Position numbers and translations under genes: made by a program | Sequence record: MW584180.1 | Reading direction: 5' to 3' (one strand) | Length of the DNA stretch: 64,000 bases | Source of the DNA: Mycobacterium phage prophiGD15-1 | Notes under the pieces: generated by a model | The model's database searches: none | Told to the model about the DNA's origin: nothing | What the model saw: only the letters and a program-made list of their open reading frames with translations | Part shown: positions 18,384-64,000 of the stretch, piece after piece | How the letters are laid out: each line of letters begins with the position of its first letter | Position numbering within the stretch: position 1 is the stretch's first letter

Positions 18384-18384
18384 A

Positions 18385-19486: not shown

Positions 19487-19500
19487 GGAGGTAGTGAGAG

Positions 19501-20131: not shown

Positions 20132-20270
20132 GCGAACTACGTAGAGCACTGTTGGTAGCCAAAGCGGAAGCGGCACTTATCCCCACCGGCCGACGGGCTG
20201 AGCTCGACCGCAGATTCACTGCGGCCCAGAAGGCGGCACAGGCTCACGCCACGTACAGGAGGTCCGCTTA

Positions 20271-20948
20271 GTGTCCGTCTCCGACAGCTTCTTTCTCGAT
20301 AAAGGCTCCCAACACAAGCTCCGTGAAGAGTTGGCCAGCATCCCCCGCATGATCGGGGAGCTGTCCGTCACCCTCACCCGCCAGGCTCGCATCCAGAGGC
20401 CAGGGTTGAGTATGTCCCGAAGGCCCAAGCCTGAGTCTCAGGTCCCCATCCATATCGGGGCACACAACGCCGCTGACGTACTGCACAACTGCCTAGGTAC
20501 GTGGGTGAGGCTGGTATGCGAACAACGAGCGATCGTGTGGGATAAGGGCAACGACATCATCACGCTGGCCAAGTGGCTGCGAGTCAACATGATCGCCCTA
20601 GCCCTCACTGAAGGTTCAGAAGAAGCGTACGAGGACATCAAAGCCGCTATCGATGACTGCTGGCGACAGATAGACATCCCCGCCGACGATGACATTGTGA
20701 TCGACCGAGGACGAGTACATGAAGCGAACAAACACATCGTCACCGCCGACACCATCGAACCTATCGCCCGCCGGATAGGGGAGATGGGAAAGAAGCTGAA
20801 TGCGCAGCGGGTGCACTCGCTTACCCGTGGTGGGCATCTGCGTCCAGTCTCTAGCGACCCGGACACGGGTAAGAAGTTCTACCGACTGGGGGATGTGCTG
20901 CACGCGCACAACAACTGCGAGAAACGAGACCGAAAGAAGGGCGCATGA
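20271..20948 (+). CDS. Hypothetical protein.
   Basis: 225-aa ORF. Confidence 0.4.
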   Translation: MSVSDSFFLDKGSQHKLREELASIPRMIGELSVTLTRQARIQRPGLSMSRRPKPESQVPIHIGAHNAADVLHNCLGTWVRLVCEQRAIVWDKGNDIITLAKWLRVNMIALALTEGSEEAYEDIKAAIDDCWRQIDIPADDDIVIDRGRVHEANKHIVTADTIEPIARRIGEMGKKLNAQRVHSLTRGGHLRPVSSDPDTGKKFYRLGDVLHAHNNCEKRDRKKGA

Positions 20949-48352: not shown

Positions 48353-51300
48353 TGCCACGGTCTTTCGACCGAATCCCGCTGCCGTTCAACGACCCTAACC
48401 AGGGGCTCGAGTTCCATATCGGCACCGCTTTCCAGCAAGGGCTGGAAATGTGGAAGGCAATCATCGATGGAATCATCGAGTACGCCGAAAGCCTGATCAA
48501 GGAACTCATCCAGAAACTCCTGGGCTTGGATGTTGACCCGGAGCAGGCGCTCGAGGATCTGTGGAATCTACTCACCGGCTGGGTAGATGACATCCCGATC
48601 ATCGGCGACATCATCGAGATCATCAAGGACTTCCTGAACGGGAACCTGTTCGGGCGTGACGGATTCATTCTGTCGAACCTGATCCCGGCGTTGTCGTTCA
48701 GCTGGATCACTGATGAGCAGCCGAACCTGTTGGTGGCGGGCAATTTCCAGGACGGCTCCAGCATCGCCGACAACCCGTACTGGACCTGGGAATCCGGGGT
48801 TACGCATAGTGCGGACAGTTCCGGCAGTGTGAAAGTCACCGCGAATGGTGTCACGAAAGCGTTGCGGTCCAACGAGATCCTTGCCAATCCTGGCCAAACC
48901 ATGTCGCTGGAGATGTGGGTTAAGTGGTCCGGGTACGCGGGCACTAATTCGCCGATCAAGTTGCAGATGGTCGAGTTCTCCGGTCGCGGGGATAGCGCTG
49001 TACAGGTTGGGGTTGAGGACGTTGCGACGCTGAACCCGAACACGTCAACGGGGGATTGGCGTCAAATGGTCGGGAACTACACGGTTCCCGACGGTGTGCA
49101 TGCGGTGCGTGTGCGGATCCTGGTGACCAAGGACGCCACCTCGGGTGTTTTCAACTTTGATGACGGTGTTGGTAAGAAGACCAACAAGATTCAGCAGGGC
49201 TGGATCGACGGGTTGTCGAACACGTTCCAGGAAGTTCTGTCTCGGTGGCAGTTGATCATCGACACCGTAGTCAACGGGATCACGGGATCCAACAACGCGT
49301 TACACACCCTGGAAGATCTGTTCGACGCTGTCACTCATATCCCGTTGTTCAAGATCCTCGGCTTCGGTGGCCCGGGGGATGCGAACACAACTTTCGAGGA
49401 GTTCCTTTCACATCTTCTCGGGGGAATGTCGGGATCGACTGACCCGAACTCCAATGGCGGTTTCGCTGACCTGTTCAACGTTGCCAAGCTGCTACAGACC
49501 GCGGCGGCGATGGGGGAGAGCGCCTTCCAGATCCTCTCTATCCGCAACAACACCCCCGTCAACACCGGTTTGTTGCCGTCGGGTAGGTCGAACTACGGCC
49601 TGACCAGCGTCAACACCACCCTGTCTGCCACACAGAGTGCGTCACTGATCGCGACAATGCGCGTGGAGCAAGACATCGCTTTGGGCGTGGTGTCGTGGCT
49701 GGGCTGCGGCACCAGCGGCATCACAGCGTTCTACGTCAACATCTGGAAACTCGACGGGGTTTCCGGGGACTGGGCTTTGGTGCATCACTCCCCGAACATC
49801 CTGTCCGAGCTGACCGCCGGTACTACACCGAACTGGACGTTCTACCAGCTCGACACCCCAGTTGATCAGAAGGCGGGGGAAATCTACGCCTACGAACTCG
49901 TCCCCGTCGGCGGAACCCACAGTGTCCGCGGCATTTCCACCACGGACGATATTCCTGATCACCCGTTCGCGCAGGTCGTTGGCTTGGCCGCGACACGGGA
50001 TAACTCGTCGTCCCCGAACACACCTCCCTCGACCATCGCCAAGGCGAGCGTTGTTCGGTCCGGGAACATCCCGTGGATTGAAACAGCTATCGACACCGGA
50101 AACGGTGTGGGCTACTACGACCCCATCTCGGTGTATGCCGTTGACGATGGCACGATTCCGATCCCGTCGTGGTGCAACTTCGTTGATGTTGTAGCAGTAG
50201 GTGGTGCCGGTGGCGGCCAGATGGGGTTCACCGTCGGATTCCACGGAGAACCGGGATCTCCGGGTCTCTACAAGGCCGCAACGTGGCAACGGGGCGTGCA
50301 CTTCGCCGACGACACGGTTCTCACGTTCACCAAGGGTCCCGGCGGACTAGGTGGACGCCTCGGCCACGATGACGGCGAAGACGGCACGGCTACTAGTTGG
50401 TCAATTCCTGACTACAGCATCACGGCGGAACCCGGAATCGGCGGTACTGAACTACAGCTGGGCTACAACCCCATTGGTCGCGGTCCCGGGAATTTCGAGT
50501 ACAAGGGCGAGAACCATGTCGGTGGCGCGGACCAAAAGATACCCGGCCGCGACGGTGTATCCCCGGGCGGTGGCGGTAACGGCGGCAATGGGCTGACGTT
50601 CCAGAACGGCGGTAAGGGGGCCGACGGCGCAGGCTGGGTGAGATTCCGGCAGAACCCACTCGAGGGGGAAGAGGTCATCGGCGGCCCCGGCCAAGTCTTG
50701 GTCCCCAGCATCGAATCCACCGCATCGCTGGGCACACCGACCGTCTCGGGTGGGTTGTCGCTGCTTCCGCTGGAGGATCAGGCCGCTATCGACGCGATCG
50801 TGGCCGCGAACATGACCGCCCCGGGTGGGGTGTTGGCCATCCAGTCCCCAGACGGGTACTACACGAAGGCGTACGGCAAGGTCTCCACCGCCGCAGGGGC
50901 GCGGAACGTGATCCCGGAGGACCACTTCCGTATCGGTTCCTGCACCAAGTCGTTCACCGCAACCATGATCTTGCAGGCAGTTGATCGTGGCTTGTTGTCG
51001 TTGGACGATCCGCTGGAGAAGTTCCTTCCCGGCGTTCCGGGCGGCACCAAGATAACGGTCCGCCACATGATGTGTCTGCGGTCGGGTCTGTTCAACGAAC
51101 AAACCGACCTCGGCATGATGATGCGCTACTTCCTGATGCCGACCTCTGACTGGACGGACGAAGAAACACTCGCGATCGTCAAACAGCACGAACCGTCATT
51201 CGAACCCGGCCAAGGTTGGGCGTACGTCAACTCCAACTACTTCCTGCTGGGGATGATCGTTTCGATCGTCAACGGCCGCCCCACGAGAGACGTGCTACAG

Positions 51301-52476
51301 ACGGACATTCTGGATCCGCTGGGTTTGACGCAAACCAGCTGGCCCACCACCGCGAAGATGCCCGAACCGTATGCGAACGGACACGCCTGGGCCACCGGAA
51401 TTTTCGGTGGCGGGGCCTGGCAGGATGCCACCGAAACCGGGCCGGGATATGCGAGCGCCGCCGGTGTCATGATTTCCACCGCCCACGATCTGCTGCTGTG
51501 GGCCAAGGAATTACGCGACGGCACCCTATTGAGTCCTGAGCTGCATGAGCTGAGAACCAAATGCTACTGGCCTGTCCCGTGGGGCAATGATGACCAGCTG
51601 ACCTATTTCGGGTACGGGCACGGCATGTTCGAGCTTGGGCAGTGGCGCGGCCATGGCGGGTCGTGGCGCGGGTACGAAGTCTCGGTCTACTACCTGCCGA
51701 ACGGCACCTTGTTCGCGATGTGTGAGAACGCCCAGACACCGACCGTTGAGGTTGAGGTGTCGATGATGTTCAAAATCGGCAAGTACCTTTACCCGGATTC
51801 TCTGACGGTCCCTGATTATCAGGCGAATCGGGTGTTCGGTATCCCATCGAAAGCCTCGGTCGGTAAACCGATCGTCGGCAGTATTGATGTCAAGTTCGAC
51901 AACAAGAGCACCTTGGGTACAAGTCAGGCGACGATCCCGGAATTCACGCTGGACCCCGAAGCGAACATTGTGTTCGCCTATCTGGCAACGCAATCCGGCA
52001 TTGATCTGTCTGTAGTGACGGCGAAAATCGGCGGCGTCACCATGAACAGGCTACCGATTATGTCCAATGGGTCGAACCAACTGGTGGTGTGGTGGCTGCT
52101 CGATCCGCCCACAGGGGCTAGGTCGATCAACCTGCTCAATGCCCCGTATGGGTCGAACTATGCAACCGGTGCGGCGTCCTACAAACTCGCCGCACCTGCA
52201 GGGATTGAAACACCCGTGATCACTCAGGGCTACAGCGCGTCCCCATCGGTCAGTGCTACCACCAATAGCCACGGCAGGATCGTCAACGCCTTCCTGTATG
52301 GGGGACAGACCAGCGCCTACAACCAAACCGAGCGTGGACATTTGGATGCCGTCGCGTTCGGTGCCGGACTGATATTCGGCGACGCACCAGGCGGTTCGGT
52401 GACGTTCACCCAAACCCTCACAGCTGCCGCCCCATGGATCGGTATCGCGATCCCCATCGTCTCCAACGCGGAATAG
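48352..52476 (+). CDS. Large minor tail protein carrying a serine beta-lactamase / D-Ala-D-Ala carboxypeptidase-like domain.
   Basis: 1374 aa. Gly-rich region, then SCTKSFTATMILQAVDRGLLSLDDPLEKFLPG (SxxK motif) and a YANGHAW…GYASAAGVMISTAHDLLLW class C/DD-peptidase-like core. Confidence 0.65.
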   Translation: MPRSFDRIPLPFNDPNQGLEFHIGTAFQQGLEMWKAIIDGIIEYAESLIKELIQKLLGLDVDPEQALEDLWNLLTGWVDDIPIIGDIIEIIKDFLNGNLFGRDGFILSNLIPALSFSWITDEQPNLLVAGNFQDGSSIADNPYWTWESGVTHSADSSGSVKVTANGVTKALRSNEILANPGQTMSLEMWVKWSGYAGTNSPIKLQMVEFSGRGDSAVQVGVEDVATLNPNTSTGDWRQMVGNYTVPDGVHAVRVRILVTKDATSGVFNFDDGVGKKTNKIQQGWIDGLSNTFQEVLSRWQLIIDTVVNGITGSNNALHTLEDLFDAVTHIPLFKILGFGGPGDANTTFEEFLSHLLGGMSGSTDPNSNGGFADLFNVAKLLQTAAAMGESAFQILSIRNNTPVNTGLLPSGRSNYGLTSVNTTLSATQSASLIATMRVEQDIALGVVSWLGCGTSGITAFYVNIWKLDGVSGDWALVHHSPNILSELTAGTTPNWTFYQLDTPVDQKAGEIYAYELVPVGGTHSVRGISTTDDIPDHPFAQVVGLAATRDNSSSPNTPPSTIAKASVVRSGNIPWIETAIDTGNGVGYYDPISVYAVDDGTIPIPSWCNFVDVVAVGGAGGGQMGFTVGFHGEPGSPGLYKAATWQRGVHFADDTVLTFTKGPGGLGGRLGHDDGEDGTATSWSIPDYSITAEPGIGGTELQLGYNPIGRGPGNFEYKGENHVGGADQKIPGRDGVSPGGGGNGGNGLTFQNGGKGADGAGWVRFRQNPLEGEEVIGGPGQVLVPSIESTASLGTPTVSGGLSLLPLEDQAAIDAIVAANMTAPGGVLAIQSPDGYYTKAYGKVSTAAGARNVIPEDHFRIGSCTKSFTATMILQAVDRGLLSLDDPLEKFLPGVPGGTKITVRHMMCLRSGLFNEQTDLGMMMRYFLMPTSDWTDEETLAIVKQHEPSFEPGQGWAYVNSNYFLLGMIVSIVNGRPTRDVLQTDILDPLGLTQTSWPTTAKMPEPYANGHAWATGIFGGGAWQDATETGPGYASAAGVMISTAHDLLLWAKELRDGTLLSPELHELRTKCYWPVPWGNDDQLTYFGYGHGMFELGQWRGHGGSWRGYEVSVYYLPNGTLFAMCENAQTPTVEVEVSMMFKIGKYLYPDSLTVPDYQANRVFGIPSKASVGKPIVGSIDVKFDNKSTLGTSQATIPEFTLDPEANIVFAYLATQSGIDLSVVTAKIGGVTMNRLPIMSNGSNQLVVWWLLDPPTGARSINLLNAPYGSNYATGAASYKLAAPAGIETPVITQGYSASPSVSATTNSHGRIVNAFLYGGQTSAYNQTERGHLDAVAFGAGLIFGDAPGGSVTFTQTLTAAAPWIGIAIPIVSNAE

Positions 52477-52487
52477 GGAGAACCTTA

Positions 52488-52886
52488 ATGGTAAACGCTT
52501 TGTACGATCACGCCCGAGAAGCATTCCTTAAGGGCGACCTCGACTGGGAAGTGCACAACTTCAAAGTCTGCGGAGTGGACGCCACATACACACCCAATAT
52601 CGCAACCCACCAGTATCTTTCGCACATCACGGGAATTGTGTGCACATCCTCGAACCTGTCCGGTAAGTCATGGACCGCCGGTGTCGCAGATGCCGCTGAT
52701 GTCGTATTCCCGACAGTCACGGGTGCAACGATCGTGCGCTGGATCATCTACCAAGACACCGGCACCGCGGGCACATCGCAGCTTGTCGCGTTATACGACA
52801 CAGCATCCGGGCTGCCGGTGATCCCCGATGGCACCAATATAACGGTCACCTGGGACAACGGGGCTAGTCGGATCCTCCGCATCTAG
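52488..52886 (+). CDS. Hypothetical tail-region protein.
   Basis: ORF. Confidence 0.35.
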   Translation: MVNALYDHAREAFLKGDLDWEVHNFKVCGVDATYTPNIATHQYLSHITGIVCTSSNLSGKSWTAGVADAADVVFPTVTGATIVRWIIYQDTGTAGTSQLVALYDTASGLPVIPDGTNITVTWDNGASRILRI

Positions 52887-52888
52887 CT

Positions 52889-54286
52889 ATGGCTGGTGTA
52901 ACCGGCTGGTGGGCTGAAACATTCAGTGAACCGGCCCCTAAAGTGCTCGCCCTAGCCGGGGGCGTTCCTGGGGTTGCGGTGACGCACGACGTATACGCGT
53001 TCACGACCGGGGCAACCTTGACCCTGACGGGATCTGAGCCACCCGTCATTGGTCCACCACTGCGGCCGGGTTCGCCGGAACTCACCCTTACAGGCGGGGT
53101 CCCTGGCATTCGGGTCGGCAACGTTCTGTCGCCGGACGACGGCGAGATGGCATTGGCTGGCGATATCCCCACGATCGTTCAGTCCAACAACAACCTTGTA
53201 TTCCCCACGGCAGCTGCGGGTTCACTCACCGGGGGAACGCCGACGATCATCACCGGCCCAATCCTTATCCCGACCGCCGCCACACCGTCGCTTACCGGCG
53301 GAACTCCCGCGTTGGCGCATCGTTTGGTGCCCACCGCTGCCACACCGACACTCACTGGTGTACGCCCGCTGATCAACGTGACCTACCCGCCACCCACGGT
53401 GCAGCTCACCCTCACGGGCGGCACCCCACGGATTGCCATCACAGTCACCCCGACTGGCGCAGCCCCAACCGTCACGGGCGGTATACCGTCCATAGCCCTG
53501 TCACTGGCCCCCACAGCTTCGCTGACTATTACCGGTGGGACGCCGCGCATAGTGCAGACCCTCGCACCGCCAGCAGCAGCACCGACGCTTACCGGCGGGG
53601 CTCCGCTGATTGCCGCGAAGGTAGCACCCACAGGTGCGACCCCATCCTTGACTGGCGGCACACCGGTAGTCACCACCATCCACACAGTCTCTTTCGTTGC
53701 CGCCAACGGGAACGCGAGCAGTTCTGTCACCATCCCCACTCATCAAATCGGGGATCTGATCGTCCTGTTCGCGTACAACCCGTTCTCAACCTCCGCGCCC
53801 ACCAAGCCGTCGGCGGGCGGCACGGTCCCGGACTACACCTATATCGACAACGCCAACAGCGGAAGCGGATCAGGCTGCACCACCGCGTATTTCAAGGCGA
53901 CAGCTACTAACACGACATCGGGGACTTGGGGCAGTGCGTCCCACATGATCGCGGTCATTGTGCGTGACCAGAACACAAGCTCGCCGATCGGTGGTCATGG
54001 CCAAGCTGCGGGAACGAGCGCCTCGTCCACTGCGCCGTCGGTGACGTTGACCCACACCGACGGGTCCTCGGTACTGCTGCATTTCCACGGCCACTCCAGC
54101 TTGGGTGCGAGCGGATGGGATGCCGCGCCAGCCGGTTACACACGCCAAGCCTCATCGGGCGCGGCGTTCGGTTCAGCGACCGCCCTCAACACCAAGAACA
54201 TCACCACCACCGATGGATCTGTAGCCCAGACGGGCGGCCAGTCCGGCCAAAGCTACGCGGCAGCCACTGTCGAAATCATCAACTAA
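52889..54286 (+). CDS. Minor tail protein with ~9 tandem ~22-aa PTxAxPxLTGGTPxI repeats.
   Basis: Translation shows iterated …PTAATPSLTGGTPAL…PTGAAPTVTGGIPSI…PPAAAPTLTGGAPLI…. Confidence 0.55.
   Translation: MAGVTGWWAETFSEPAPKVLALAGGVPGVAVTHDVYAFTTGATLTLTGSEPPVIGPPLRPGSPELTLTGGVPGIRVGNVLSPDDGEMALAGDIPTIVQSNNNLVFPTAAAGSLTGGTPTIITGPILIPTAATPSLTGGTPALAHRLVPTAATPTLTGVRPLINVTYPPPTVQLTLTGGTPRIAITVTPTGAAPTVTGGIPSIALSLAPTASLTITGGTPRIVQTLAPPAAAPTLTGGAPLIAAKVAPTGATPSLTGGTPVVTTIHTVSFVAANGNASSSVTIPTHQIGDLIVLFAYNPFSTSAPTKPSAGGTVPDYTYIDNANSGSGSGCTTAYFKATATNTTSGTWGSASHMIAVIVRDQNTSSPIGGHGQAAGTSASSTAPSVTLTHTDGSSVLLHFHGHSSLGASGWDAAPAGYTRQASSGAAFGSATALNTKNITTTDGSVAQTGGQSGQSYAAATVEIIN
53020..53680 (+). repeat. 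In-frame tandem DNA repeats (~66 bp unit, imperfect) encoding the LTGGTP motif array.
   Basis: Recurring …accggcggaactcccg… / …acgggcggcaccccacg… / …actggcggcacaccgg… blocks. Confidence 0.6.
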
Positions 54287-54301
54287 CGAAAGGGCACTAC
54301 C

Positions 54302-54733
54302 TTGACCGCAGGCACATGGACGTTCCCCAATGGGGCACGCACCAATCTACTTAACGGAACGTTCGACATCGACTCCGACACCTGGCGGGTCGCCCTCGTC
54401 ACTTCGTCATCCAATATCGGTTCCTCCACCACCACTTGGGCTGGTGTCACCAATGAGGTTGCTCAGGCGAACGGCTACACCACGGGCGGTGTGGCTGTGA
54501 CCCTCACCCTTTCGGGCACCACGAGTGTTACGGCGTCGTTCTCCACGAACCCAACCTGGACCGCATCAGGCGGCAGCATCACCGCAAGGTGGGCCGTCCT
54601 TTACGAGCTCGGCGGAAACGTGCTGTGCTACGTGCTCCTGGACAACACCCCAGCCGATGTGACAACCACCAACGGCAACAGTTTGACGATTGACAGCGAT
54701 GGGGCACCGGCTCCCGTCTTCACCTTGTCGTAG
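54302..54733 (+). CDS. Minor tail protein.
   Basis: 143-aa ORF following the repeat protein. Confidence 0.4.
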   Translation: MTAGTWTFPNGARTNLLNGTFDIDSDTWRVALVTSSSNIGSSTTTWAGVTNEVAQANGYTTGGVAVTLTLSGTTSVTASFSTNPTWTASGGSITARWAVLYELGGNVLCYVLLDNTPADVTTTNGNSLTIDSDGAPAPVFTLS

Positions 54734-54796
54734 CACTCTCACCTCCTTGTGGGCCTCGCTAGTGCGGGGTCTTTTTTAATGCCCGAAAGAGGTCGC

Positions 54797-54937
54797 ATGT
54801 TCTCTCAACTGCTGCGTTACCCCGCCTACTACGCCGTTATCGGGTTGGCGGGGTTCGGGTTCGGAGTGTGGTTCCGGCGCTCCCGCTGGGTGACGGCGGG
54901 TCGACCAGGGCTCGATCCCCGGATCGGAGGCATCTAG
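54797..54937 (+). CDS. Small membrane protein upstream of lysin A. Possibly holin-like.
   Basis: TM YYAVIGLAGFGFGVWF. Confidence 0.3.
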   Translation: MFSQLLRYPAYYAVIGLAGFGFGVWFRRSRWVTAGRPGLDPRIGGI

Positions 54938-54995
54938 TGAATTGGTTGCGCCGCAAGATCAATGAGTGGCTGGCCGCGATCTGGTGGTCGTACTA

Positions 54996-56369
54996 ATGGC
55001 CGTCCTACGCGCGAATGTTGAGTTCGCGAAGCGGATTTTCCAGGACCGCGTCGGCAACGACTACGTGTACGGCGGCAACTGGAATCCGTTCAACCTCAAG
55101 GTCGGTACCGACTGCTCCGGTCTGGTCATTGACATCTGCGACGCTGTGCGCAACGGGACCGCGATGGCCTGGACCCGGCATGGGATGTCCACCGAGAGCT
55201 GGCGTCCGATCGAGGTAGGTCAGACCGGAACGATCTTCAACACCATATGCGTGGCGTCGCCGAATGACTTCCCGGCTGATGCTGCGGTGAAGATCGCCAT
55301 CCATCACGGCCCCGGCGGTGGGGCGAACAGTCACATGTGGTGTGAGGTTGAGGGAATCCGCATGGAGTCCAACGGCTCCGATGGGTGTGTGACCGGGAAC
55401 CAGGCGCGGTCCGTGTACGACACGAGCTATGCGAACGACTGGCACTACCTGCCCGGACCCATCACAGGCCAGGTAGGTGTCGATCCCGCAGGAGTGCTGG
55501 CACGTGCCACCGGGCTAAGTGTCGCGAGGGCTTCGCAGATCCTACCCGCGGTGTCGGACGGGCTCAAGGCTAGTCAGTGCACGAACGTCAATCGGATCGC
55601 GATGTGGCTGGCGCAGGTCGGCCACGAGTCAGCCGGCTTCAATGCCACCGAAGAGTATGCCTCCGGTGCCGCCTATGAAGGGCGTGCAGATCTGGGTAAC
55701 ACCCAACCCGGGGATGGGGTGCGGTTCAAGGGCCGCAGCTGGATTCAGATCACCGGCCGCAACAACTACGCAGCGTTCTCGCGGTGGTGTTCGGGTAAAG
55801 GACTCGTTCTGTCGCCAACGGAATTCGTTGATAACCCGAACCGACTGGCCGAACTGCGGTGGGCCGGTATAGGTGCGGCTTGGTACTGGACGGTCGCCCG
55901 CCCGGACATCAACGCCCTGTCGGATCGGCAGGACTTAGAGACCGTCACGCGCCGAATCAACGGCGGCACCAACGGCTTGGCTGATCGTCGCGACCGATAC
56001 AACCGCGCCCTACTCCAGGGCGATGCGCTTCTGCAACTACTCACTGAACCGCTGGACCCGATTGAGGAGCTACTGATGTCAGACCTTCAGGTCGAATCCC
56101 TATCCATCTACGCCACCCCAGGTGAGCCGTTGATCCCGATTGTTCGCATGGTGCAGGCCATCGACGCCGCGGAGCACCGCAAGCTCGTCGAGGACTGGGC
56201 GCGCACCGGGGATGCAGACGCACTATCCCGTATCGCCCGCACCGCGGCGGGGCAAGGGAAGTTCCGTGACGCCGCCACCATCGCACACGCCAAAGCCGTG
56301 CTCGCTGACATTGAAGCCACTAACCCTGCAGTCCTGCAGGAGTTCATCTCTCAGAAGGGACAATCATGA
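54996..56369 (+). CDS. lysA: Lysin A (endolysin): N-terminal Cys-peptidase-like domain plus GH19 glycoside hydrolase domain.
   Basis: DCSGLV Cys motif near the N-terminus. GH19 signature RFKGRSWIQITGRNNYAAFSRW and WLAQVGHESAGF. Confidence 0.8.
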   Translation: MAVLRANVEFAKRIFQDRVGNDYVYGGNWNPFNLKVGTDCSGLVIDICDAVRNGTAMAWTRHGMSTESWRPIEVGQTGTIFNTICVASPNDFPADAAVKIAIHHGPGGGANSHMWCEVEGIRMESNGSDGCVTGNQARSVYDTSYANDWHYLPGPITGQVGVDPAGVLARATGLSVARASQILPAVSDGLKASQCTNVNRIAMWLAQVGHESAGFNATEEYASGAAYEGRADLGNTQPGDGVRFKGRSWIQITGRNNYAAFSRWCSGKGLVLSPTEFVDNPNRLAELRWAGIGAAWYWTVARPDINALSDRQDLETVTRRINGGTNGLADRRDRYNRALLQGDALLQLLTEPLDPIEELLMSDLQVESLSIYATPGEPLIPIVRMVQAIDAAEHRKLVEDWARTGDADALSRIARTAAGQGKFRDAATIAHAKAVLADIEATNPAVLQEFISQKGQS

Positions 56370-56782
56370 CCGCCCAGATTCGCAAGTGGTACTACCTCAT
56401 CGGCGCACTGGTGACAGCGCTCGTGCCGATTCTGGTGACCTCCGGTGTCGTCAGTGACACCCAGGGCAATGCGTGGATCAACGCCGTTGTAGCTATCGGT
56501 GGCGTTCTGGGTGCTGCGGGTCTCGGCACTGCCGGTGTGGTCTTGGGCAAGCAGATCAAGGGAGCCCCCGGTGCCGCAGCGGACAAGGCCGTCACAAGCC
56601 TGCAGGACATCCAGGCTCAGCTGAACTCCACCGCGCAGGCCGCGCAGGACCAGCTTGCCGCCGCCACCCAGGTTGCCGTGGACAGCATCACCAAGATTCA
56701 GGCCACCGTAGGCAATGTCGTCGGCCCGCAGGTTTCCCTCGGCCCGCTGGCTGCCGAGGTCATCAAGAGCGTGACTGAGTGA
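56366..56782 (+). CDS. Holin-like membrane protein.
   Basis: Two TM helices at the N-terminus (YYLIGALVTALVPILVTSGVV, AVVAIGGVLGAAGLGTAGVVLG). Located between lysA and lysB. Confidence 0.55.
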   Translation: MTAQIRKWYYLIGALVTALVPILVTSGVVSDTQGNAWINAVVAIGGVLGAAGLGTAGVVLGKQIKGAPGAAADKAVTSLQDIQAQLNSTAQAAQDQLAAATQVAVDSITKIQATVGNVVGPQVSLGPLAAEVIKSVTE

Positions 56783-57747
56783 TCCTCACCCTCGGTTCTC
56801 ACGGGGAGGTAGTAGCGAGGTGGCAGCGGGTCATGTTGGCCCGCTTCGCCTCCTACGCCAAAGCCGCCGATGGGGGACCACTGAAGGTCGACTCGTATTT
56901 CGGGTACGACGACCAAGCCGTCCAGAAGGAATATCAGCGCCGCACGAACCAACCTCAGACGGGTGAGGTCTCGCAAGCGGATCTGGTGAAGCTGGGTTTG
57001 ACGCCGCTGTTCTTCACGGTCGAGGGACACCTGTCCGACATGTACCAGGGGCCTTGTGCTTTCGTGGCCTCTACTTTGGAGCGTGAAGGGCGGGCGGTGT
57101 GGCGGCCCACCGGCTATGACAACGTGCGGTTGCCGTTCAACAACCAGTCCGGTGTGGACGAACTCGTCAACCGTCTGGATACCAAGCTGTTCGACGACGG
57201 CACACCCTTCCCTGAAGGAACACCCTGGAATCTGGCGATCTTCAGCCAGGGCGCGATGGTCGGCTGCGAGGTCATGGAAAAGCACGTCCTACCGACTAAT
57301 GGCAGGTTGCATTACCGGCTCAAGGACTTCCGCAAGGGTATTGCATTTGGGAACCCCTACCGCCTGATCAACCAGTGCGCCCCTTGGGTTCCCGACCCGC
57401 CCCAGCCCAACACGCAGGGAATCATGGACTGGCACTTTGACTTCCTGAAATACCCCGAGCTGGCGGGGAAGTGGCAAGAGCATGCCCGCACCCGCGACTG
57501 GTACGCCGAGAACCGGTTGGACGAGGCAGGTCAGAACATGACCGCGATCGCAAAGATCATCACCCAATCCTCCTGGACCGGTGGGGCTTCCTCGATAGTT
57601 GCCCGAATCATGGACCTATTCATCAACCCATTCGACGGGTTGATCGACATCGTGTGGGCGATCGTCCGAACCTTCCAGGGCATCGCCCACTTGGAGGCCC
57701 ACGGCACGTACGACCTGAATCCAGTCCTTGACTGGTTCCGTGCTTAA
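56779..57747 (+). CDS. lysB: Lysin B (mycolylarabinogalactan esterase, cutinase-like), with an N-terminal peptidoglycan-binding domain.
   Basis: PG-binding-like N-terminus (GSHGEVVARWQRVML…). Serine esterase motif AIFSQGAMVG. Confidence 0.75.
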   Translation: MILTLGSHGEVVARWQRVMLARFASYAKAADGGPLKVDSYFGYDDQAVQKEYQRRTNQPQTGEVSQADLVKLGLTPLFFTVEGHLSDMYQGPCAFVASTLEREGRAVWRPTGYDNVRLPFNNQSGVDELVNRLDTKLFDDGTPFPEGTPWNLAIFSQGAMVGCEVMEKHVLPTNGRLHYRLKDFRKGIAFGNPYRLINQCAPWVPDPPQPNTQGIMDWHFDFLKYPELAGKWQEHARTRDWYAENRLDEAGQNMTAIAKIITQSSWTGGASSIVARIMDLFINPFDGLIDIVWAIVRTFQGIAHLEAHGTYDLNPVLDWFRA

Positions 57748-57795
57748 CAACTGAATAGAGCCCTCGAAGCGCCCCATGAAAGGCGGTTCAAACAA

Positions 57796-58017
57796 ATGTC
57801 CATCCGGGAACAACTGGCCGAGGCCGCCAAGCCGAAGCAGCGCTGCACATGCTGTGCATGGGTCGCTACGCAGAGTGCAGATGACCGTAAGGCTATTGAG
57901 GAATGGGTAGCCGAAGGGAAGTCGATTGAGGCGCTTGTCCGCGTGCTGCGGAATGAGGGTCTTCCGGTGGGGCCGGTGCAGTTCCGGCGTCACGTGCGAG
58001 AGTGTGTGCGCTCTTGA
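57796..58017 (+). CDS. Small Cys-containing protein.
   Basis: CTCCAW…ECVRS. Confidence 0.35.
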   Translation: MSIREQLAEAAKPKQRCTCCAWVATQSADDRKAIEEWVAEGKSIEALVRVLRNEGLPVGPVQFRRHVRECVRS

Positions 58018-59210
58018 GTATCCGTGACAGCCTCAATAGTCGCCGCCCCGTGCCGGAAGAGTCGGCACCAGAGCAGGCGAAAATGCGCGCGGAGTGGGAC
58101 GGCACCGCAGGTTTTATTCAGACGGGCAAGGTCTCAGATGACTTCGATGAGCAGGACTTCGAGGGCATCCTTCGCGAGTTCGCCGACGAACTGCACTACG
58201 ACCCAGCCAAGGTTGAGATTGCCGGTAACCCACAGGTCGTGGTGTGGGAGACGGGCTTCCGCAACAAGGAGGGGGAGTGGGAGAAGCATAAGCACCACTC
58301 CTGGCGGTATCACCTCGCCGTCCGGCGTTGGGCTATAGACCTACCCGCCTTGTATGCGGAGGTCCGCAAGACGAGGCCGGTGCAGCCGAAGAAACCCACA
58401 GGGGAGTCGACGGTTGTGGTGTGCTGGGCAGACATTCAAACCGGGAAGGTCGACCACCTCGGCGGCGTCAAAGAGTTATTACTGCGCCTTCAGGAAAAGC
58501 GGGAAAACCTGAACGCCTACCTGAAACGTTCAAGGTTTGATCGCATCATCATCGCGGACGTGGGCGACATTGTGGAGGGCTTCGACAACGTCACAGCCCA
58601 AACCCGCACCAACGGCCTATCTCTCATGGATCAGGTCGAGGTTGCCGCCACGGAGTTCTGGAAGACCATCACCCTGTGCGCCAAGCACGCCCCGGTGGAT
58701 GTGCTGTCCATCCCGTCCAATCACGGCCAGTGGCGCCGCGGGAAGGATCTAATCGGGAAGCCCACCGACGACTGGGGATTGGCTATCTCGAAACGTCTTG
58801 AATGGCACAACAACCCCGACAACCAAGGCCCGAACCTGCCGGTAGATTTCCACCGGCCGCCCGAGTGGTGCGAGACACTGCAGTTCGATGTACGCGGCAC
58901 CAGGTTGGGGTTGGCGCATGGCCACCAAGCCTCCGGCGCTGACCGGGTTAAGACGTGGTGGGAGAAGATGACCCACGGCGGCGTCATGGACTGCCACGTC
59001 CTCTTGACTGGACATTTCCACTACGCCAGCCTGCGCCCCCATGGGCGGGATCAAGTAACGGGTAAGGCGCGCTGGCACATCCAAGCCTCAACCCTGGACA
59101 ACGGCTCCGCATGGGTGATGAACAAGATGGGCGAAGACGGAGATCCGGCACTGACGGTGTTCCAGATCAACAACGACGGCTTCGACGTACAGAGCTTCGC
59201 CCTCCTATGA
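58002..59210 (+). CDS. Calcineurin-like metallophosphoesterase.
   Basis: DVGDIVEGFDN…SNHGQW…GLAHGHQASG…LLTGHFHYASL are phosphoesterase motifs (GDxxD/GNH(D/E)…GH…GHxH). Confidence 0.55.
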   Translation: MCALLSIRDSLNSRRPVPEESAPEQAKMRAEWDGTAGFIQTGKVSDDFDEQDFEGILREFADELHYDPAKVEIAGNPQVVVWETGFRNKEGEWEKHKHHSWRYHLAVRRWAIDLPALYAEVRKTRPVQPKKPTGESTVVVCWADIQTGKVDHLGGVKELLLRLQEKRENLNAYLKRSRFDRIIIADVGDIVEGFDNVTAQTRTNGLSLMDQVEVAATEFWKTITLCAKHAPVDVLSIPSNHGQWRRGKDLIGKPTDDWGLAISKRLEWHNNPDNQGPNLPVDFHRPPEWCETLQFDVRGTRLGLAHGHQASGADRVKTWWEKMTHGGVMDCHVLLTGHFHYASLRPHGRDQVTGKARWHIQASTLDNGSAWVMNKMGEDGDPALTVFQINNDGFDVQSFALL

Positions 59211-59335
59211 AACGTCACGATACGATTCAAGTAGGCGCCAACGCTGAAAAGCGCTGCCCGAGATGCGAAACCGTCAAGCCCGTCACGGCATTCTCGGTTG
59301 TCAGTTCTCAAATGACCTGTCGCATTCTCATCTAA
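59208..59335 (+). pseudogene. Small Zn-finger-like ORF (KRCPRCETVKPV…) whose 3' end runs into the transposon terminus. Probably a phage gene truncated by the Tn7-like insertion.
   Basis: The reading frame continues into the TGTCGCATTCTCAT terminal repeat and ends at a TAA inside it. Confidence 0.3.
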
Positions 59336-59388
59336 TCTGTCGCAACCGCGTGTCGTTCTCATTTGATCTGTCGTACGCCTCTTAACAT
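59318..59388 (+). repeat. Tn7-like transposon terminus (tnsA-proximal, Tn7-R equivalent): four TGTCG(C/T)-initiated putative TnsB-binding repeats.
   Basis: TGTCGCATTCTCATCTAATC / TGTCGCAACCGCG / TGTCGTTCTCATTTGATC / TGTCGTACGCCTC. The terminal 5'-TGT and reiterated TTCTCAT…ATC are Tn7-family hallmarks. Confidence 0.6.
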
Positions 59389-60147
59389 TTGGGTGTGCAA
59401 GCGTCTCGGGCGCTGGTTGCGCCGCAGATTGCTAGTGACGTTGACGTGGAGTTCGTCGCCGATGGTCAACGCCACAGAGTACCGCTGGTTGAGTGCGCGA
59501 TGCTCAGATTTGATTTGGATTGCTCACCTGCCCGCAACTTCCCGAATTTTAGAGGTCAAAGCAACTACCCAGGCCTGTGGTGGTTTGCTACGACTGGCCA
59601 GCATGTAGGTCATGAATCCTGGCTGGAACGTGATCATCTGATGCTGCTCGATGCTGATCCGCACGTTGTGGGTGTGGCGTCGCAGCCATTTCGGCTGCAT
59701 TGGCCTGGTGGCACTCACCATGTCCCGGACTACTTTGCTAGATATGCCGATGGCGGTGTGACGGTTCTTGACGTGCGCGATGACAAGCGCATCACTGAGG
59801 ATGATCAGCTCAAGTTTGATCTTTCGGAAATTGCTTGTCGCACAGTGGGTTGGGGTTACCGCCAGTTAGGTGTGCCTGATCAGGTGTTGGTGGCGAACAT
59901 TCGGTGGCTATCGGGGTATAGACACCCCCGAGTGTGCCGCGAGGATGTGGCGGAGTCGTTGCTCGCGGTGTTCGCCGAACCGGCGCGGCTATTGTCTGGC
60001 GCTCAAATCGTCGGTGATCGGCTGCATGTGTTGCCGGTGCTGTTTCATTTGTTGTGGCACAGGCAGTTGTCGACAGATTTGGCTGGCGCGTTGCTATCGG
60101 AGTCGGCGGTGGTCGGCCCTGCCGGATGGTGGGCGCATTCGTGTTGA
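59389..60147 (+). CDS. tnsA: TnsA-like transposition endonuclease (start codon uncertain).
   Basis: HESWLERDHLMLLDADPHVVGVASQPF…VPDYFARYADGGVTVLDVRDDK aligns with the Tn7 TnsA catalytic region (SDLELAVFLSLEWESSVLDIREQFP…DFLVDCKDG…VKP). Confidence 0.65.
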   Translation: MGVQASRALVAPQIASDVDVEFVADGQRHRVPLVECAMLRFDLDCSPARNFPNFRGQSNYPGLWWFATTGQHVGHESWLERDHLMLLDADPHVVGVASQPFRLHWPGGTHHVPDYFARYADGGVTVLDVRDDKRITEDDQLKFDLSEIACRTVGWGYRQLGVPDQVLVANIRWLSGYRHPRVCREDVAESLLAVFAEPARLLSGAQIVGDRLHVLPVLFHLLWHRQLSTDLAGALLSESAVVGPAGWWAHSC

Positions 60148-62216
60148 GGGCAGCTGCGGTACGCGTGGGTGATGAGATCCGTTTAGCTGGTGAACGTTTC
60201 ACGGTCTTATCGATCACCGATGGTGCGGCGCGATTAATCAGTGCTGTCGGCGAGCGCAGTTCGGTGCCACTGCCGGCGTTGTGCACGGACCCGTCGTTGG
60301 AATTGGTGGCAACGTCATGGCCGCCATTGTGCTCCGAAGAGGCTTTGACTGGCGTACCCCAAGAGGTGGTGGAACGGGCACGCTGGTGGGAACAGCATCT
60401 GCTTGACGTGATCACCGGCCGCTCCGGGACCGGCATGGACACTGACAGTGCTGATTTCGACCCCGCGGTGACGACGCTGCGCCGCCGGGAGATGGCCAAG
60501 CTCGCCGAACTTGCCGATGAAGGTCATGTTTTGACGTTGCGGACGCTGCAGCGCCAACGCAAGGCCTACCAGCGTGACGGGCTGCTGGGTGTGCTGGATG
60601 GGCGTTACCGGCCGAACCGGCCCGTGCATGGGCGAGTCGATCCGCGGGTGAGCGAGACGGTAGTTGGTCTTATCGAGGCCGAAACTGAGTTGTCGACGGG
60701 CACGGTGCGCCGCATGCAGCGCAAGACCGCACGGGCGTTGAAGGCTCAGTACGGCGATGAGGCACCGCAAATGCCCTCGAAGGCAACATTTTATCGTCTG
60801 GTGGGCCGATTATCTGCGGGCAAGCACACGTTCGGGTCAGCCCGCACGCGCAGGTCGTTGGCCAAGCAGCCAGACAAACCGTTCGGGACGTTGACAGTGG
60901 CCCGCCCCGGCGAGGTGGTGGAGGTCGATTCCACACCCCTGGATGTAGCGGTGCGCTTCGATGACGGCACCGTTGGCCGGGTCGAGTTGATTGGGATGGT
61001 CGACTGTGCCACCCGCACGATCGCCGCAGCGGTATTGCGGCCAACAACCACGGCGGTGGATGCGGCGCTGCTGTTGGCGCGATCGTTGACCCCGGAGCCG
61101 ATGCGCCCAGGCTGGTCTGATGCGGTGCGGATGACGGCCTCAGTGCTACCCCATCACAGTTTGACCACTCTGGATCAGCGGTTCGCGGCCGCCGCTGCCC
61201 GGCCCGTGATCGCCCCAGAAACCATTGTGATCGATCACGGCAAAGCGTATCTGTCGCAGACATTTTCGCAGGCCTGCTGCACGCTGGGGATCAATTTGCA
61301 GCCCGCGCACCCGGATGAGCCGACGGACAAACCGAAGATCGAACGCACTATCGAGTCGGTCGGCACGATGTTCGCCTCCGAGGTGGCCGGATATCTGGGG
61401 TCCTCGGTGGAGCGGCGCGGCAAGCACGCCGAAAAACGTGCCGTGTGGTCGATCGTGCAGTTGCAAGCGCTACTGGATGAATGGATTGTCACCGCCTGGC
61501 AGAACCGGCCCCACGACGGGCTGCGCGACCCCTTAACTCCGGGAAAGACGTTGACTCCCAATGAGAAATACGCAGCCCTGGTCGAGGTGGCCGGGTATGT
61601 GCCGGTGGCCTTGAGCGGTGATGACTACATCGAACTGCTGCCGACGCGGTGGCGCAAGATCAACTCCTACGGGGTGCGGATCAACAATCGCCACTACGAC
61701 GCCAAAGCCTTCAACCCCTACCGCGGCCAATCTTCGGGGGTCGGTAAGAAGAACAATAGGTGGGAAGTGCATTTCGACCCGTGCGATGTGTCCCGGGTTT
61801 GGGTGCGCAATCACCACGAATCGGGCTGGATCCAGGCCAACTGGACGCACCTGCGGACCGCGCCGGTGCCGTTCGGGGAAACGATCTGGAAGCAGAGCCA
61901 ACAGATCCTGGCCGAGCGCGGCCAGCGTGCCGCGACGCAAGCCGAGATCGCCGAAGCGGCCGAAGAATTGCTGACTCGGGCCGCTGCCGGGCCGCCAGAG
62001 CAGCTCGTGGACAAGAAGATCCGCCGGAAGCTGGTTCGCGCCCAGCACTCCACCGTGACACCGCTGTGGCCACGCCCAGCACCCGATTTACCCGCCGACG
62101 GCCCTGTGGTGGCCGATCGCGGCGATAGGGACAACGACGATGTGATTGATGTGGCGGCAGTGGTGCCGCTTCCGGTGTTCGATGCCCGCAAGGAGGCCAA
62201 ATTGTGGCGACTGTAA
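60126..62216 (+). CDS. tnsB: TnsB-like DDE transposase (Mu/retroviral integrase superfamily).
   Basis: ~700 aa. The motifs GEVVEVDSTPLD…, IVIDHGKAY and PDEPTDKPKIER supply the D, D, E catalytic triad. The ATG at 60126 overlaps the tnsA stop. Confidence 0.75.
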   Translation: MVGAFVLRAAAVRVGDEIRLAGERFTVLSITDGAARLISAVGERSSVPLPALCTDPSLELVATSWPPLCSEEALTGVPQEVVERARWWEQHLLDVITGRSGTGMDTDSADFDPAVTTLRRREMAKLAELADEGHVLTLRTLQRQRKAYQRDGLLGVLDGRYRPNRPVHGRVDPRVSETVVGLIEAETELSTGTVRRMQRKTARALKAQYGDEAPQMPSKATFYRLVGRLSAGKHTFGSARTRRSLAKQPDKPFGTLTVARPGEVVEVDSTPLDVAVRFDDGTVGRVELIGMVDCATRTIAAAVLRPTTTAVDAALLLARSLTPEPMRPGWSDAVRMTASVLPHHSLTTLDQRFAAAAARPVIAPETIVIDHGKAYLSQTFSQACCTLGINLQPAHPDEPTDKPKIERTIESVGTMFASEVAGYLGSSVERRGKHAEKRAVWSIVQLQALLDEWIVTAWQNRPHDGLRDPLTPGKTLTPNEKYAALVEVAGYVPVALSGDDYIELLPTRWRKINSYGVRINNRHYDAKAFNPYRGQSSGVGKKNNRWEVHFDPCDVSRVWVRNHHESGWIQANWTHLRTAPVPFGETIWKQSQQILAERGQRAATQAEIAEAAEELLTRAAAGPPEQLVDKKIRRKLVRAQHSTVTPLWPRPAPDLPADGPVVADRGDRDNDDVIDVAAVVPLPVFDARKEAKLWRL

Positions 62217-63253
62217 ATAGATTCGAGGCCGTCAACCCGCTCGATGATCGCCGCCAGCCCACCACCACCTTGGAGGGCTGGCGGCGTTTCGTTGAGGCCG
62301 ATCCACCCGAGTTCACGCTCCTGGACGATACGCAGTGGCGCAGTCTGGATGTGCGGGACCGGATGCTCTACGACGAGGCCCGAATCGCCCATCACTCCGA
62401 ACTGGTCGTGGTCACCACGTCGGCGATCGCCCGGATCAACAACGAAGGCCGGCTGCTGACCCTGCTCAATCAGTGCGAGATCGGAGCCCGCCGCGGTTTG
62501 ATCATTTCCGGGGATGCGGCCACCGGGAAGACCACGGCCATCAAACAGATGGGCCGCACCCATGAACTGCGGGTGCGGGGACGCCTGACCTACGACGCCA
62601 CGTACGACGCCGTCGCGGGCCGTATCCCGGTGGTATACGTGACGGCCCCGCCCAAGGGCTCACCACGCAAACTGGCGATGGAATTCGCCCGTTTCCTGGG
62701 GCTGCCGATGACTATGAACGCCCGTGCGAACGTCACCGACATCGCCGACGCGGTCTGCCAAGTCCTCATCGATGCCCGCACCGACATCGTGGTTGTCGAC
62801 GAGATCCACAACCTGAACCTGGAAACCCGCGCCGGAGAAGACCTCTCGGATCATCTCAAATATTTCACCGAACACCTGCCCGCTACGTTCATCTACGCCG
62901 GCATCGACGTCGAACGTTCCGGGGTATTCACAGGTACCCGCGGAAAACAACTCGCTGGACGCTGCGGAGTTATCCACACCCAGGCCTTCCCCTACAACGA
63001 GGAATGGATCTCGCTGGTGGCAGGGATGGAGAACACGTTGCGACTGCACCACCACGAACCCGGAACCCTTGTCGCCGACGCCAAATACTTGCATCGGCGC
63101 ACCAACGGCATGATCGGCTCGCTGGCGCACCTGATCCGCTCAGCAGCTATCCGTTCCATCATCGACGAGACCGAAGCCGTCACCCGGGCACTGATGGATG
63201 CCACCCTGCTCGACTACGCCGCGCAAAGCGCTGCGGCCCGAACCGCCAGCTGA
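62204..63253 (+). CDS. tnsC: TnsC-like AAA+ ATPase.
   Basis: Walker A GDAATGKTTAI and Walker B IVVVDEIHNL. Overlaps the tnsB stop. Confidence 0.75.
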   Translation: MATVNRFEAVNPLDDRRQPTTTLEGWRRFVEADPPEFTLLDDTQWRSLDVRDRMLYDEARIAHHSELVVVTTSAIARINNEGRLLTLLNQCEIGARRGLIISGDAATGKTTAIKQMGRTHELRVRGRLTYDATYDAVAGRIPVVYVTAPPKGSPRKLAMEFARFLGLPMTMNARANVTDIADAVCQVLIDARTDIVVVDEIHNLNLETRAGEDLSDHLKYFTEHLPATFIYAGIDVERSGVFTGTRGKQLAGRCGVIHTQAFPYNEEWISLVAGMENTLRLHHHEPGTLVADAKYLHRRTNGMIGSLAHLIRSAAIRSIIDETEAVTRALMDATLLDYAAQSAAARTAS

Positions 63254-64000
63254 TGAACACCGCCACCGCCGCAGGACGCGCCTGGCCGGCCGGGCCGCGT
63301 CAACGCTTACCACGTGTAGTGACCCCATTCCGCACCGAGACAGTGAGTTCGTATATCGACCGGCTAGCCCACGCCAACCACCTCACCCGAGGCCGGTTGC
63401 AGTACCACGTCGCCGCAGGCACCTACCAGACCCGCGCCGACTGGCTCGCCGTCGCCACCGGAATCGCCGAAAACATCCTGCGCGAACGGCTCATTGGGTT
63501 CGGAGCGGCCAACGGCACCAACGCCAAACAACAAGCCCGGGTACGGCCCGCCTGCCGGCTGTGCATGGCCCGTCGCGGTGTCTACGAGCCCGTCCACTGC
63601 TGGCTGCCCGCGTACGAAACTGTATGTTTTCGCCACTTACGCTGGATCGGCCCCGGCGCGGCCACCTGGGAAGACCAACACGACCTGAGCAATCACCCCG
63701 ATATCGTGGTCGCCGCCCGCCGCCACCGCCAGCTGATCCGAGCCCACCGCGACCTCGCCGGCAGCGCCTTGTCCGAGGCCCGCCACATCCTGACCTGGTG
63801 GTCCCGGGTCAACCAAGACAGCGGCGACGACCAGACAGACCCGACCACGTATCTGCAGGCCTACCCAGACCTGATCACGATCGCTACCGTGCTGGCCGAT
63901 CACCGCCACCAAGTCGCCGCCGGTCCCTGCACCAGGCATCCGATCTGGTCTGAGCACCTGCTGGGTTTGATCAACACACACGCAACCACCATCCGCGACG
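63254..64000 (+). CDS. tniQ: TniQ/TnsD-family target-selection protein (partial, continues past the window).
   Basis: Frame-2 translation from ATG 63254: MNTATAAGRAWPAGPRQRLPRVVTPFRTETVSSYIDRLAHANHLT…CRLCMARRGVYEPVHCWLPAYETVCFRHLRW (TniQ N-terminal zinc-finger fold). Start overlaps the tnsC stop (ATGA). Confidence 0.65.

Follow-up and report, generated by a model that had tools for sequence, protein, structure and literature searches.

In the Mycobacterium abscessus prophage prophiGD20-1 (MW584158), an HNH-like gene is known to contain a transposon of 8,452 bp, which is bounded by imperfect inverted repeats of 25 bp and flanked by a duplication of 5 bp; in prophiGD15-1, 41-1, and 59-1, a similar transposon lies about 25 bp further left, and other M. 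abscessus genomes carry copies as well (Dedrick et al. 2021, mBio, PMC8092298). According to the same study, imprecise excision gave the viable lytic phage phiGD20-1, and lytic growth requires neither the Mre11-like nor the HNH gene (PMC8092298). A later paper restates the transposon findings (PMC9934374). The present analysis concerns the element of prophiGD15-1, a Tn7-like transposon whose left half lies at the end of the 64,000-nt sequence MW584180.1 (the window, whose numbering is used below unless another locus is given). It is the same element as the published one, since the copy in GD59 (prophiGD59-1) is base-identical, and TnsA is annotated in the GenBank record of the published prophage. 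Dedrick et al. gave no Tn7-like classification and no protein, cargo, or target analysis, and mentioned neither the other prophage sites nor the palindrome-adjacent chromosomal copies described below. An Actinobacteria-dominated clade of Tn7-like elements is also known, with no member characterized experimentally and no attachment site given (Benler et al. 2021, PMC8649781). The finding of this transposon is thus correct as stated, and the element had been published before. A sequence-only reading of the window had assigned it to the Tn7 family with TnsA-TnsB-TnsC-TniQ, and this assignment stands for what is an M. abscessus prophage of the MabA1 cluster, while its views on home-site geometry, rarity, and cargo do not; such elements in Mycobacterium prophages were said to be rarely described, and this very insertion was published in 2021 (PMC8092298).

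I conclude with high confidence that what lies here is the tnsA-proximal half of a cut-and-paste transposon that is intact, has been active recently, and belongs to the actinobacterial clade of the Tn7 family, and that this family is palindrome-targeted, the window site being exceptional. The window holds the left 4,702 bp (59299..64000, + strand) of an element of 8,780 bp, whose full extent would be 59299-68078. These 4,702 nt are 100% identical to the 8,780-bp copy in locus L011 and to that in the M. abscessus GD59 chromosome (CP065274.1, locus L029), which was found by a sequence look-up with the window TnsB. Since positions 50144-64000 of the window match GD59 with 0 mismatches, the right half of the element can be read there. 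The ends of the element were set by comparing empty with filled prophages. In megablast searches of phage records, the region matched M. abscessus prophages of the MabA1 cluster; the whole region is present in prophiGD20-1, while only the first 93 nt are common to prophiGD22-1 and six other records, and these 93 nt are part of an intact HNH endonuclease gene in prophiGD22-1. The empty site of prophiGD22-1, set against the filled sites, places the boundary at 59298|59299, whereas the phage sequence had been thought to end at 59318.

As had been noticed, the element starts with 5′-TGT. Its 26-bp terminal inverted repeat (59299..59324, + strand) reads TGTCAGTTCTCAAATGACCTGTCGCA, against TGTCCGTTCTCAAATGATCTGTCGCA for the reverse complement of the far end, and relatives in other genera have kept the TGTCCGTT... 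terminus. A motif scan revealed three clear direct copies of a 19-bp repeat, TTCTCAWWTGATCTGTCGC, on the + strand (59305-59323, 59325-59343, and 59356-59374), all within 76 bp of the left terminus, where four had been proposed; the right end has three more within about 125 bp of the terminus, two inverted and one direct. By analogy with Tn7, the 19-bp repeats are presumed to be TnsB binding sites. The left copy of the 5-bp target-site duplication, TCGGT, lies at 59294..59298 (...cattc TCGGT|TGTCAG... in L029), the right junction of L029 reads ...GGACA|TCGGT tgaccgtaaccg... (TGACCGTAACCG on from TCGGT in a fuller reading), and the empty site of prophiGD22-1 has TCGGT once only. Thus, the 5-bp duplication and the inverted TGT...ACA termini predicted from the sequence are both present in GD59. 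The prophiGD20-1 copy (8,452 bp), whose junction lies 31 bp to the right of that of the window, has the inverted termini TGTCCGTTCTCAAATGAYCTGTCGCA and the duplication ACTGT in the alignment of empty and filled sites. Matching 5-bp duplications, each with its own sequence, were found in eight insertions besides that of the window. The element therefore has the end features of Tn7-like transposons: TGT...ACA termini, internal repeats, and a 5-bp duplication.

Four overlapping genes follow on the + strand after 59299, namely tnsA, tnsB, tnsC, and tniQ, as had been read from the sequence. The profile searches suggested at that time matched the TnsA, TnsB, and TnsC families, and TniQ was identified by PADLOC, homologues, and structure, with a Pfam score under the cutoff. 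The tnsA gene (59389..60147, + strand) encodes an endonuclease subunit of 252 aa, or 250 aa if the GTG at 59395 is the start. It matches the NCBIfam profile TnsA_like_Actin (NF033179) strongly, as expected for the actinobacterial clade (281.7 bits, cutoff 110, E 3e-84), and its homologues carry Pfam TnsA_N. More than 1,500 homologues exist in Mycobacteriaceae, Nocardia, Streptomyces, Micromonospora, and others. Its AlphaFold2 (AF2) model (24 homologues, pLDDT 88) matched the crystal and cryo-EM structures 1f1z, 1t0f, and 9bw1 of Tn7 TnsA with E about 1e-7 and probability 1.0, and the matches cover 217-231 columns and both domains. E74, D112, and D126-x-R128 are invariant across 24 actinobacterial TnsA homologues, including the Arg of the D-x-R motif at residues 126-128 (window about 59770-59778). 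PD-(D/E)xK nucleases have a Lys at the last position of the motif, and Tn7 TnsA presumably has its catalytic Lys where R128 aligns. I infer nuclease activity for this TnsA.

The tnsB gene (60144..62216, + strand, with an alternative start at 60126) encodes a DDE transposase of 690 aa. The protein matches Pfam Mu-transpos_C with 33.9 bits (cutoff 21.7), rve with 26 bits, which is under the cutoff of 32.6, and a helix-turn-helix (HTH) profile; in a phmmer comparison with the solved TnsB chains 9y7b and 7svw (E 2e-8), the residues D(EVDST), D(IDHGK), and E(KIERT) were aligned. The tnsC gene (62204..63253, + strand) encodes a short TniB-type AAA+ ATPase of 349 aa (Pfam TniB, 56.9 bits, cutoff 22.4; Pfam AAA_22, 51.6 bits; PADLOC TnsC of the V-K type, 9e-8), in whose translation the Walker A sequence GDAATGKTT and the Walker B sequence VVVDEIH are seen. 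The target selector gene tniQ (63253..64000, + strand) has 249 of its 279 codons in the window, where its N-terminus already shows the TniQ signature, and ends at the window-equivalent position 64092, so that the full TniQ of 279 aa was read from the identical copies in L011 and L029. It scores 22.2 bits against Pfam TniQ (E 2.4e-4, cutoff 27) and 4.7e-7 against PADLOC TniQ, and several of its homologues (41-69% identical) pass PF06527 and are named TniQ. In an alignment of 18 homologues, a Cys/His zinc motif, CxxC...C...CxxH, is invariant. The best PDB match of the N-terminal half of the AF2 model is the TniQ of ShCAST (7svu_X, probability 0.98), while the C-terminal half is a five-helix bundle. 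In summary, the TnsA subunit, the DDE transposase TnsB, the AAA+ regulator TnsC/TniB, and the TniQ/TnsD-family selector that define a Tn7-like element were all found. More than 1,500 homologues exist in Mycobacteriaceae, Nocardia, Streptomyces, Micromonospora, and others.

The same element was also found at chromosomal sites. Exact-sequence look-ups of TnsC and TnsB gave 20 M. abscessus loci, the TnsC sequence by itself being present in 448 blocks of the assembly index, and two genomes hold one prophage copy and one chromosomal copy each. Five chromosomal insertions are fully flanked and have matching duplications, those listed being TGTTC, CCAAC, CCGGT, and GCAGA. Outside the tnsA-proximal end of every chromosomal insertion in M. 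abscessus lies the 13-bp palindrome CGTCACWGTGACG in perfect form, with gaps of 52, 53, 59, 61, 63, and 91 bp (from the palindrome to the first transposon base, duplication included). In a metagenomic relative whose TniQ is only 42% identical, this core also occurs, at 78 bp from the tnsA end. Is this common in the family? I scanned one genome per species, which gave 79 loci; the left ends of the Streptomyces relatives are not reliably definable. Among loci in which the left terminus TGTCCGTT... could be placed, the palindrome was found outside the tnsA end, at distances of 35-89 bp, in species of Mycobacterium, Mycolicibacterium, Mycolicibacter, Mycolicibacillus, and Mycobacteroides, and these gaps span about 18 other species and elements whose TniQ is only 40-46% identical. 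Taking M. abscessus chromosomes and some 20 further actinobacterial species together, the 13-mer, with at most one mismatch, lies 30-95 bp outside the tnsA end in 23 of 38 loci, where 0.002 per locus was expected (binomial P about 5e-51). In two further loci, the half-sites adjoin without the central base, and in one Streptomyces locus they are separated by 3 nt. The overall gap range is 35-91 bp with a median of about 60 bp, and the tnsA end is toward the palindrome. Since the same palindrome carries different duplications in different species, these hits are independent. The link between the palindrome and the family insertions appears to be new, as it is not in Benler et al. (2021) or Faure et al. 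(2023). Neither the palindrome target nor the prophage hot spot described below as targeting was found in the literature searched, and a search for the palindrome string returned only eukaryotic response elements.

How does this element compare with the known systems? Like Tn7, it combines a heteromeric transposase of TnsA and TnsB with an AAA+ adaptor and a selector that has a TniQ domain, its TGT...ACA ends contain multiple TnsB sites and are flanked by a 5-bp duplication, and the insertions of its family turn the tnsA-proximal end toward the recognized sequence, a geometry which agrees with those of TnsD and the CRISPR-associated transposons. Unlike Tn7, it has one short TniQ (279 aa) instead of TnsD and TnsE, a TnsC of the short TniB type (349 aa), and an Arg in TnsA at the position where the catalytic Lys of Tn7 TnsA would be expected. 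In addition, the target of the family is a multicopy 13-bp palindrome rather than a single conserved gene, the distance of 35-91 bp is variable rather than fixed, and the window copy disrupts a gene. The short TniB-type ATPase and the short TniQ resemble those of Tn5053/Tn402, the "res-site hunters", whose insertions likewise surround a palindromic site that is bound by a protein, spread across a few hundred bp and with one orientation predominating. The elements of the Tn5053/Tn402 family depend on a resolvase bound at res sites, and Tn5053, without TnsA, uses a resolvase-dependent replicative pathway. In contrast, the present element has TnsA and no resolvase gene. Cyanobacterial Tn7-like elements homing to CRISPR repeats share a short, repeated, partly palindromic, multicopy host target with the present family, while their host phylum and target sequence are different (Mob DNA 2025, PMC11837452).

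In the prophages, insertions of the element were found at six positions spanning 311 bp. From left to right, they are 59018 (L005, left junction only), 59066-59070 (L032, opposite orientation, duplication GCCTT), 59160 (L003 and L024, duplication GGTGT), 59283 (L012, left junction only), 59298 (the window and L029, duplication TCGGT), and 59329 (prophiGD20-1, L009, and L010, duplication ACTGT). Three positions are in the Mre11-like gene and three are in the HNH gene, and the orientation is the same in five of the six. Four of the insertions have matching duplications on both sides: ACTGT, GGTGT, TCGGT, and, for the inverted one, GCCTT. The loci L005 (FSMV01000002.1) and L012 (FVSO01000001.1) are short-read drafts with a prophage left flank, a chromosomal right flank, and no matching duplication; as the two flanks do not match, they were counted as junction-level evidence only. 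They may result from recombination between two copies, involving large rearrangements, or from misassembly across the 8.4-kb repeat. These four to six independent insertions make the segment a regional hot spot and not a fixed attachment point. Of the 13 distinct junction positions in M. abscessus, six fall in this prophage segment of about 310 bp.

The hot spot itself contains little that resembles the chromosomal target. A mismatch scan found no palindrome with three or fewer mismatches in it, and the two CGTCAC/GTGACG half-sites in the hot spot mean little because there are 58 in the window. Neither direct nor inverted repeats of note occur in it, no k-mers are common to it and the remaining prophage sequence, and blastn and tblastx revealed no sequence shared between the phage and the chromosomal sites. 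The proposed comparison with related prophages did define the empty site, in prophiGD22-1, but no attachment sequence is detectable at the window site. Likewise, the window insertion has no set distance or orientation relative to an attachment sequence, and its neighbours scatter over the 311 bp. The window insertion may plausibly reflect a second, palindrome-independent preference for the prophage segment.

As a tentative explanation, with a chance that I would put somewhat short of even, the clade homes via its single short TniQ to the operator-like palindrome AT-n-CGTCAC-W-GTGACG-n-AT, which the host has in many copies, and the M. abscessus member also prefers the segment of about 310 bp in MabA1 prophages independently of the palindrome. 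By comparison with Tn7, TnsB would bind the end repeats and cut and join the 3′ ends, TnsA would cut the 5′ ends and thereby allow full excision, and the AAA+ ATPase TnsC would link the transposase to TniQ. TniQ would mark the target, either by binding the palindrome directly or by docking on a protein bound there, and the insertion would be set about 60 bp from the palindrome with the tnsA end proximal.

Several observations weigh against the conclusions drawn so far. The window site and the five other prophage sites have no recognizable palindrome, and, with a weight matrix of 29 columns built from 21 sites, the best hit of the hot spot ranks only 40th in the prophage, which is background level. 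About a third of the family insertions have no palindrome; in L005 and L063, it is found only beyond the cargo end, and L034 has one on each side. As for the proteins, TnsA has the invariant Arg R128 at the position expected for the catalytic Lys, TniQ scores under Pfam's own threshold, and the C-terminal half of the TniQ model has no detectable DNA-binding fold. TniQ is thus no more than a candidate for direct DNA recognition. Furthermore, no transposition assay exists for any member of the clade (PMC8649781).

What is the palindrome? The sequence CGTCAC-W-GTGACG with AT-rich shoulders is also found away from any element in several genera, and therefore it is a host feature. Complementarity is 82% at position 8 from the centre and 21% at position 7, and the site looks like a 21-bp quasi-palindrome of the dimer-operator kind, which is its best description. 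A general long hairpin was considered and rejected. Since only four of 38 copies fold well beyond shuffled controls, an operator-like site is favored over a repetitive extragenic palindromic (REP) or attC-like hairpin. An Rfam search with one palindrome pair returned sub-threshold hairpin-like microRNA matches only, and no conserved gene beside the palindrome was evident from the lists of open reading frames (ORFs).

Some features of the palindrome were observed in passing. It is often paired at distances of 100-850 bp, bracketing small two-gene toxin-antitoxin-like cassettes. Its positions include 6730-6742 and 7020-7032 in L004, 8791 and 9632 in L079, 17495 and 18259 in L037, and 4669 and 4776 in L072; the pair in L079 brackets a vapBC-like gene pair. 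A few copies are at the tip of long perfect hairpins, of 37 bp in L063 (13940-13976) and about 60 bp in L072.

It is possible, and I would give it a real though minority chance, that the palindrome is read via a host DNA-binding protein on which TniQ docks, much as Tn5053/Tn402 elements rely on their resolvase at res sites, and that the hot spot is another binding place of this protein or of a phage analogue. The occurrence of the palindrome away from elements in several genera, partly as pairs around toxin-antitoxin-like cassettes, and its look of a 21-bp dimer operator with the values given above for positions 8 and 7 would suit such a protein, as would a spread of 35-91 bp that is looser than that of TnsD and a C-terminal half of TniQ without a DNA-binding fold. 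Yet no candidate protein was identified, and the motif is kept by elements whose TniQ is 40-46% identical, which direct recognition fits equally well.

The clustering in the prophage could also have arisen without targeting, from selection, if insertions here do the lysogen no harm or even benefit it, from clonal clinical sampling, or from assembly errors across the 8.4-kb repeat. Two of the six prophage junctions, those of L005 and L012, come from short-read drafts with unmatched flanks and are possible misjoins; a few clones dominate M. abscessus collections; and the phage can grow lytically without the Mre11-like and HNH genes (PMC8092298). However, four insertions have clean matching duplications in finished genomes, six of the 13 M. 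abscessus junction positions fall in one segment, and most of a silent 60-kb prophage should tolerate insertion, so that selection accounts poorly for four to six hits within 0.3 kb. I therefore consider this explanation unlikely.

The sequence-only reading had placed the insertion just 3′ of a recognized phage gene and had regarded the prophage as a home site. In this model, TniQ/TnsD would read the 3′ end of the Mre11-like gene and direct insertion to a fixed downstream point, with the prophage as the dedicated home site. The window insertion does lie 88 bp downstream of the stop codon of the Mre11-like gene, and five of the six prophage insertions have one orientation. However, the insertion splits and destroys the HNH gene, which is intact in prophiGD22-1 with 648 bp; the points scatter over 311 bp in sister prophages, with three inside the Mre11-like gene and one inverted; unrelated chromosomal sites hold the same element and have no sequence in common with the phage site; and no relative in other species was found beside homologues of the Mre11-like or HNH gene. 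The home-site model is thus very improbable.

There is next to no chance that the element is a CRISPR-associated transposon, a carrier of a defence island, or a TnsA-less element of the Tn5053/Tn402 type, because, in spite of the short TniQ and the short TniB-like TnsC known from type V-K and Tn5053, TnsA with a Tn7 TnsA-like fold is present, and the complete 8,780-bp copy refutes the idea by having no cas gene, CRISPR array, Rfam match, or PADLOC defence match.

The complete copy examined for cargo was that at 9156-17935 of L029. Past tniQ, it carries four DUF5994 paralogues and one DUF6307 gene. This 8,780-bp copy contains no cas gene, no CRISPR array or other repeat array, no PADLOC Cas or defence match, no Rfam match, and no resolvase gene. 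Thus, the hope for CRISPR guides or defence cargo was disappointed, and the pairing of cas genes with an array inside the element that characterizes CRISPR-associated transposons was not found. Neither was the Tn5053/Tn402 set of TniA-TniB-TniQ with TniR and without TnsA, since TnsA is present and the resolvase gene is absent; the profile and fold matches of TnsA show that this is no Tn5053/Tn552-type set lacking TnsA.

The 8,780-bp and 8,452-bp variants differ by a non-coding 328-bp indel between tniQ and the first DUF5994 gene (element positions about 4836-5188 of L011 and L029, window-equivalent about 64135-64486). The two variants also have 22 substitutions in the first 4.8 kb, and the left terminus is TGTCA in the 8,780-bp variant but TGTCC in that of 8,452 bp. 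In L028 (about 15050-20800), a chromosomal copy is cut after the second DUF5994 gene by another insertion, and the locus contains no right transposon end. The intruder has a Peptidase_M78 protein, two adjacent tyrosine-recombinase (Phage_integrase) genes, and a DUF6262 gene.

The phage genes at the left flank are as follows. The Mre11-like gene (58014..59210, + strand) is labelled "MRE11 double-strand break endo/exonuclease" by the depositors of prophiGD20-1 and prophiGD22-1. It has no Pfam or NCBIfam match, while the metallophosphoesterase-like motifs GDxxE, SNHG, and GHFH are visible in its translation, and its 3′ part falls in the insertion hot spot. The 5′ fragment of the HNH endonuclease gene (59207..59298, + strand, 92 nt), which is cut by the transposon, is identical to the first 92 nt of the prophiGD22-1 HNH gene, and the 3′ remainder sits beyond the right end of the element in L029, where it has an HNH Pfam match. 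The small ORF that had been seen to read from the phage into the terminal repeat does run into the transposon end (59207-59335, 42 aa); it is a fusion of this HNH fragment with the transposon end. The only other contig with the exact junction ORF is L013 (Logan contig SRR21939626_146, 6,010 bp), which stops at the last base of the window, inside tniQ. The shared stop at 64000 probably reflects a break in the assembly at the point of divergence between the two transposon variants or copies. A scan of IMG/VR with the left transposon end gave no match. In L003, a tyrosine integrase gene and an excisionase-like HTH_17 gene (18265-19670) lie about 100 bp past the right end of the prophage (locus position ~18189), which suggests a second integrated element in tandem with the prophage.

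Related elements were found in other contexts. Prophage prophiGD05-1 (MW584169; L014, 7471-17196), of another prophage cluster, has a related Tn7-like element of 9,726 bp whose TnsB is about 78% identical at the DNA level. It is inserted 1-4 bp upstream of the start codon of lysin A with the duplication ATGAG, and no palindrome was found nearby. Its tnsA has decayed to a 189-bp remnant, and its cargo encodes a histidine kinase and a DNA-binding, response-regulator-like protein. In Mycolicibacter and relatives (L015-L020, around 7917-10858), identical TniB-TniQ pairs occur with metal-resistance genes (P-type ATPases, ArsR, and MerR) in at least four different genomic contexts; TnsB is absent, upstream there is just an ORF of 197 aa, and the boundary sequence is GGTCCCCCGCCCCCGGGGACG.... 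These pairs may be remnants that travel with a mobile element of another kind, and they were set aside from the family analysis on account of the different boundaries and the lack of TnsB.

For the prophage, the insertion knocks out the HNH gene, and, according to the literature, the prophage is then too long and can be packaged only after it has lost the element. These effects bear on whether a bioinformatically "intact" M. abscessus prophage can yield phage. Where one genome has two copies, these may serve as substrates of 8.4 kb for rearrangement, but the two apparent recombinants may stem from faulty assembly. The clade carries metal-resistance and other cargo across Mycobacteriaceae, and its target was previously unknown; with the 13-bp palindrome, it now has a concrete attachment signal that can be tested, and the prophage hot spot offers a second target for comparison. 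If the tentative explanation given above is true, the M. abscessus element would have one route into the chromosome and another into phage DNA with only a single selector gene.

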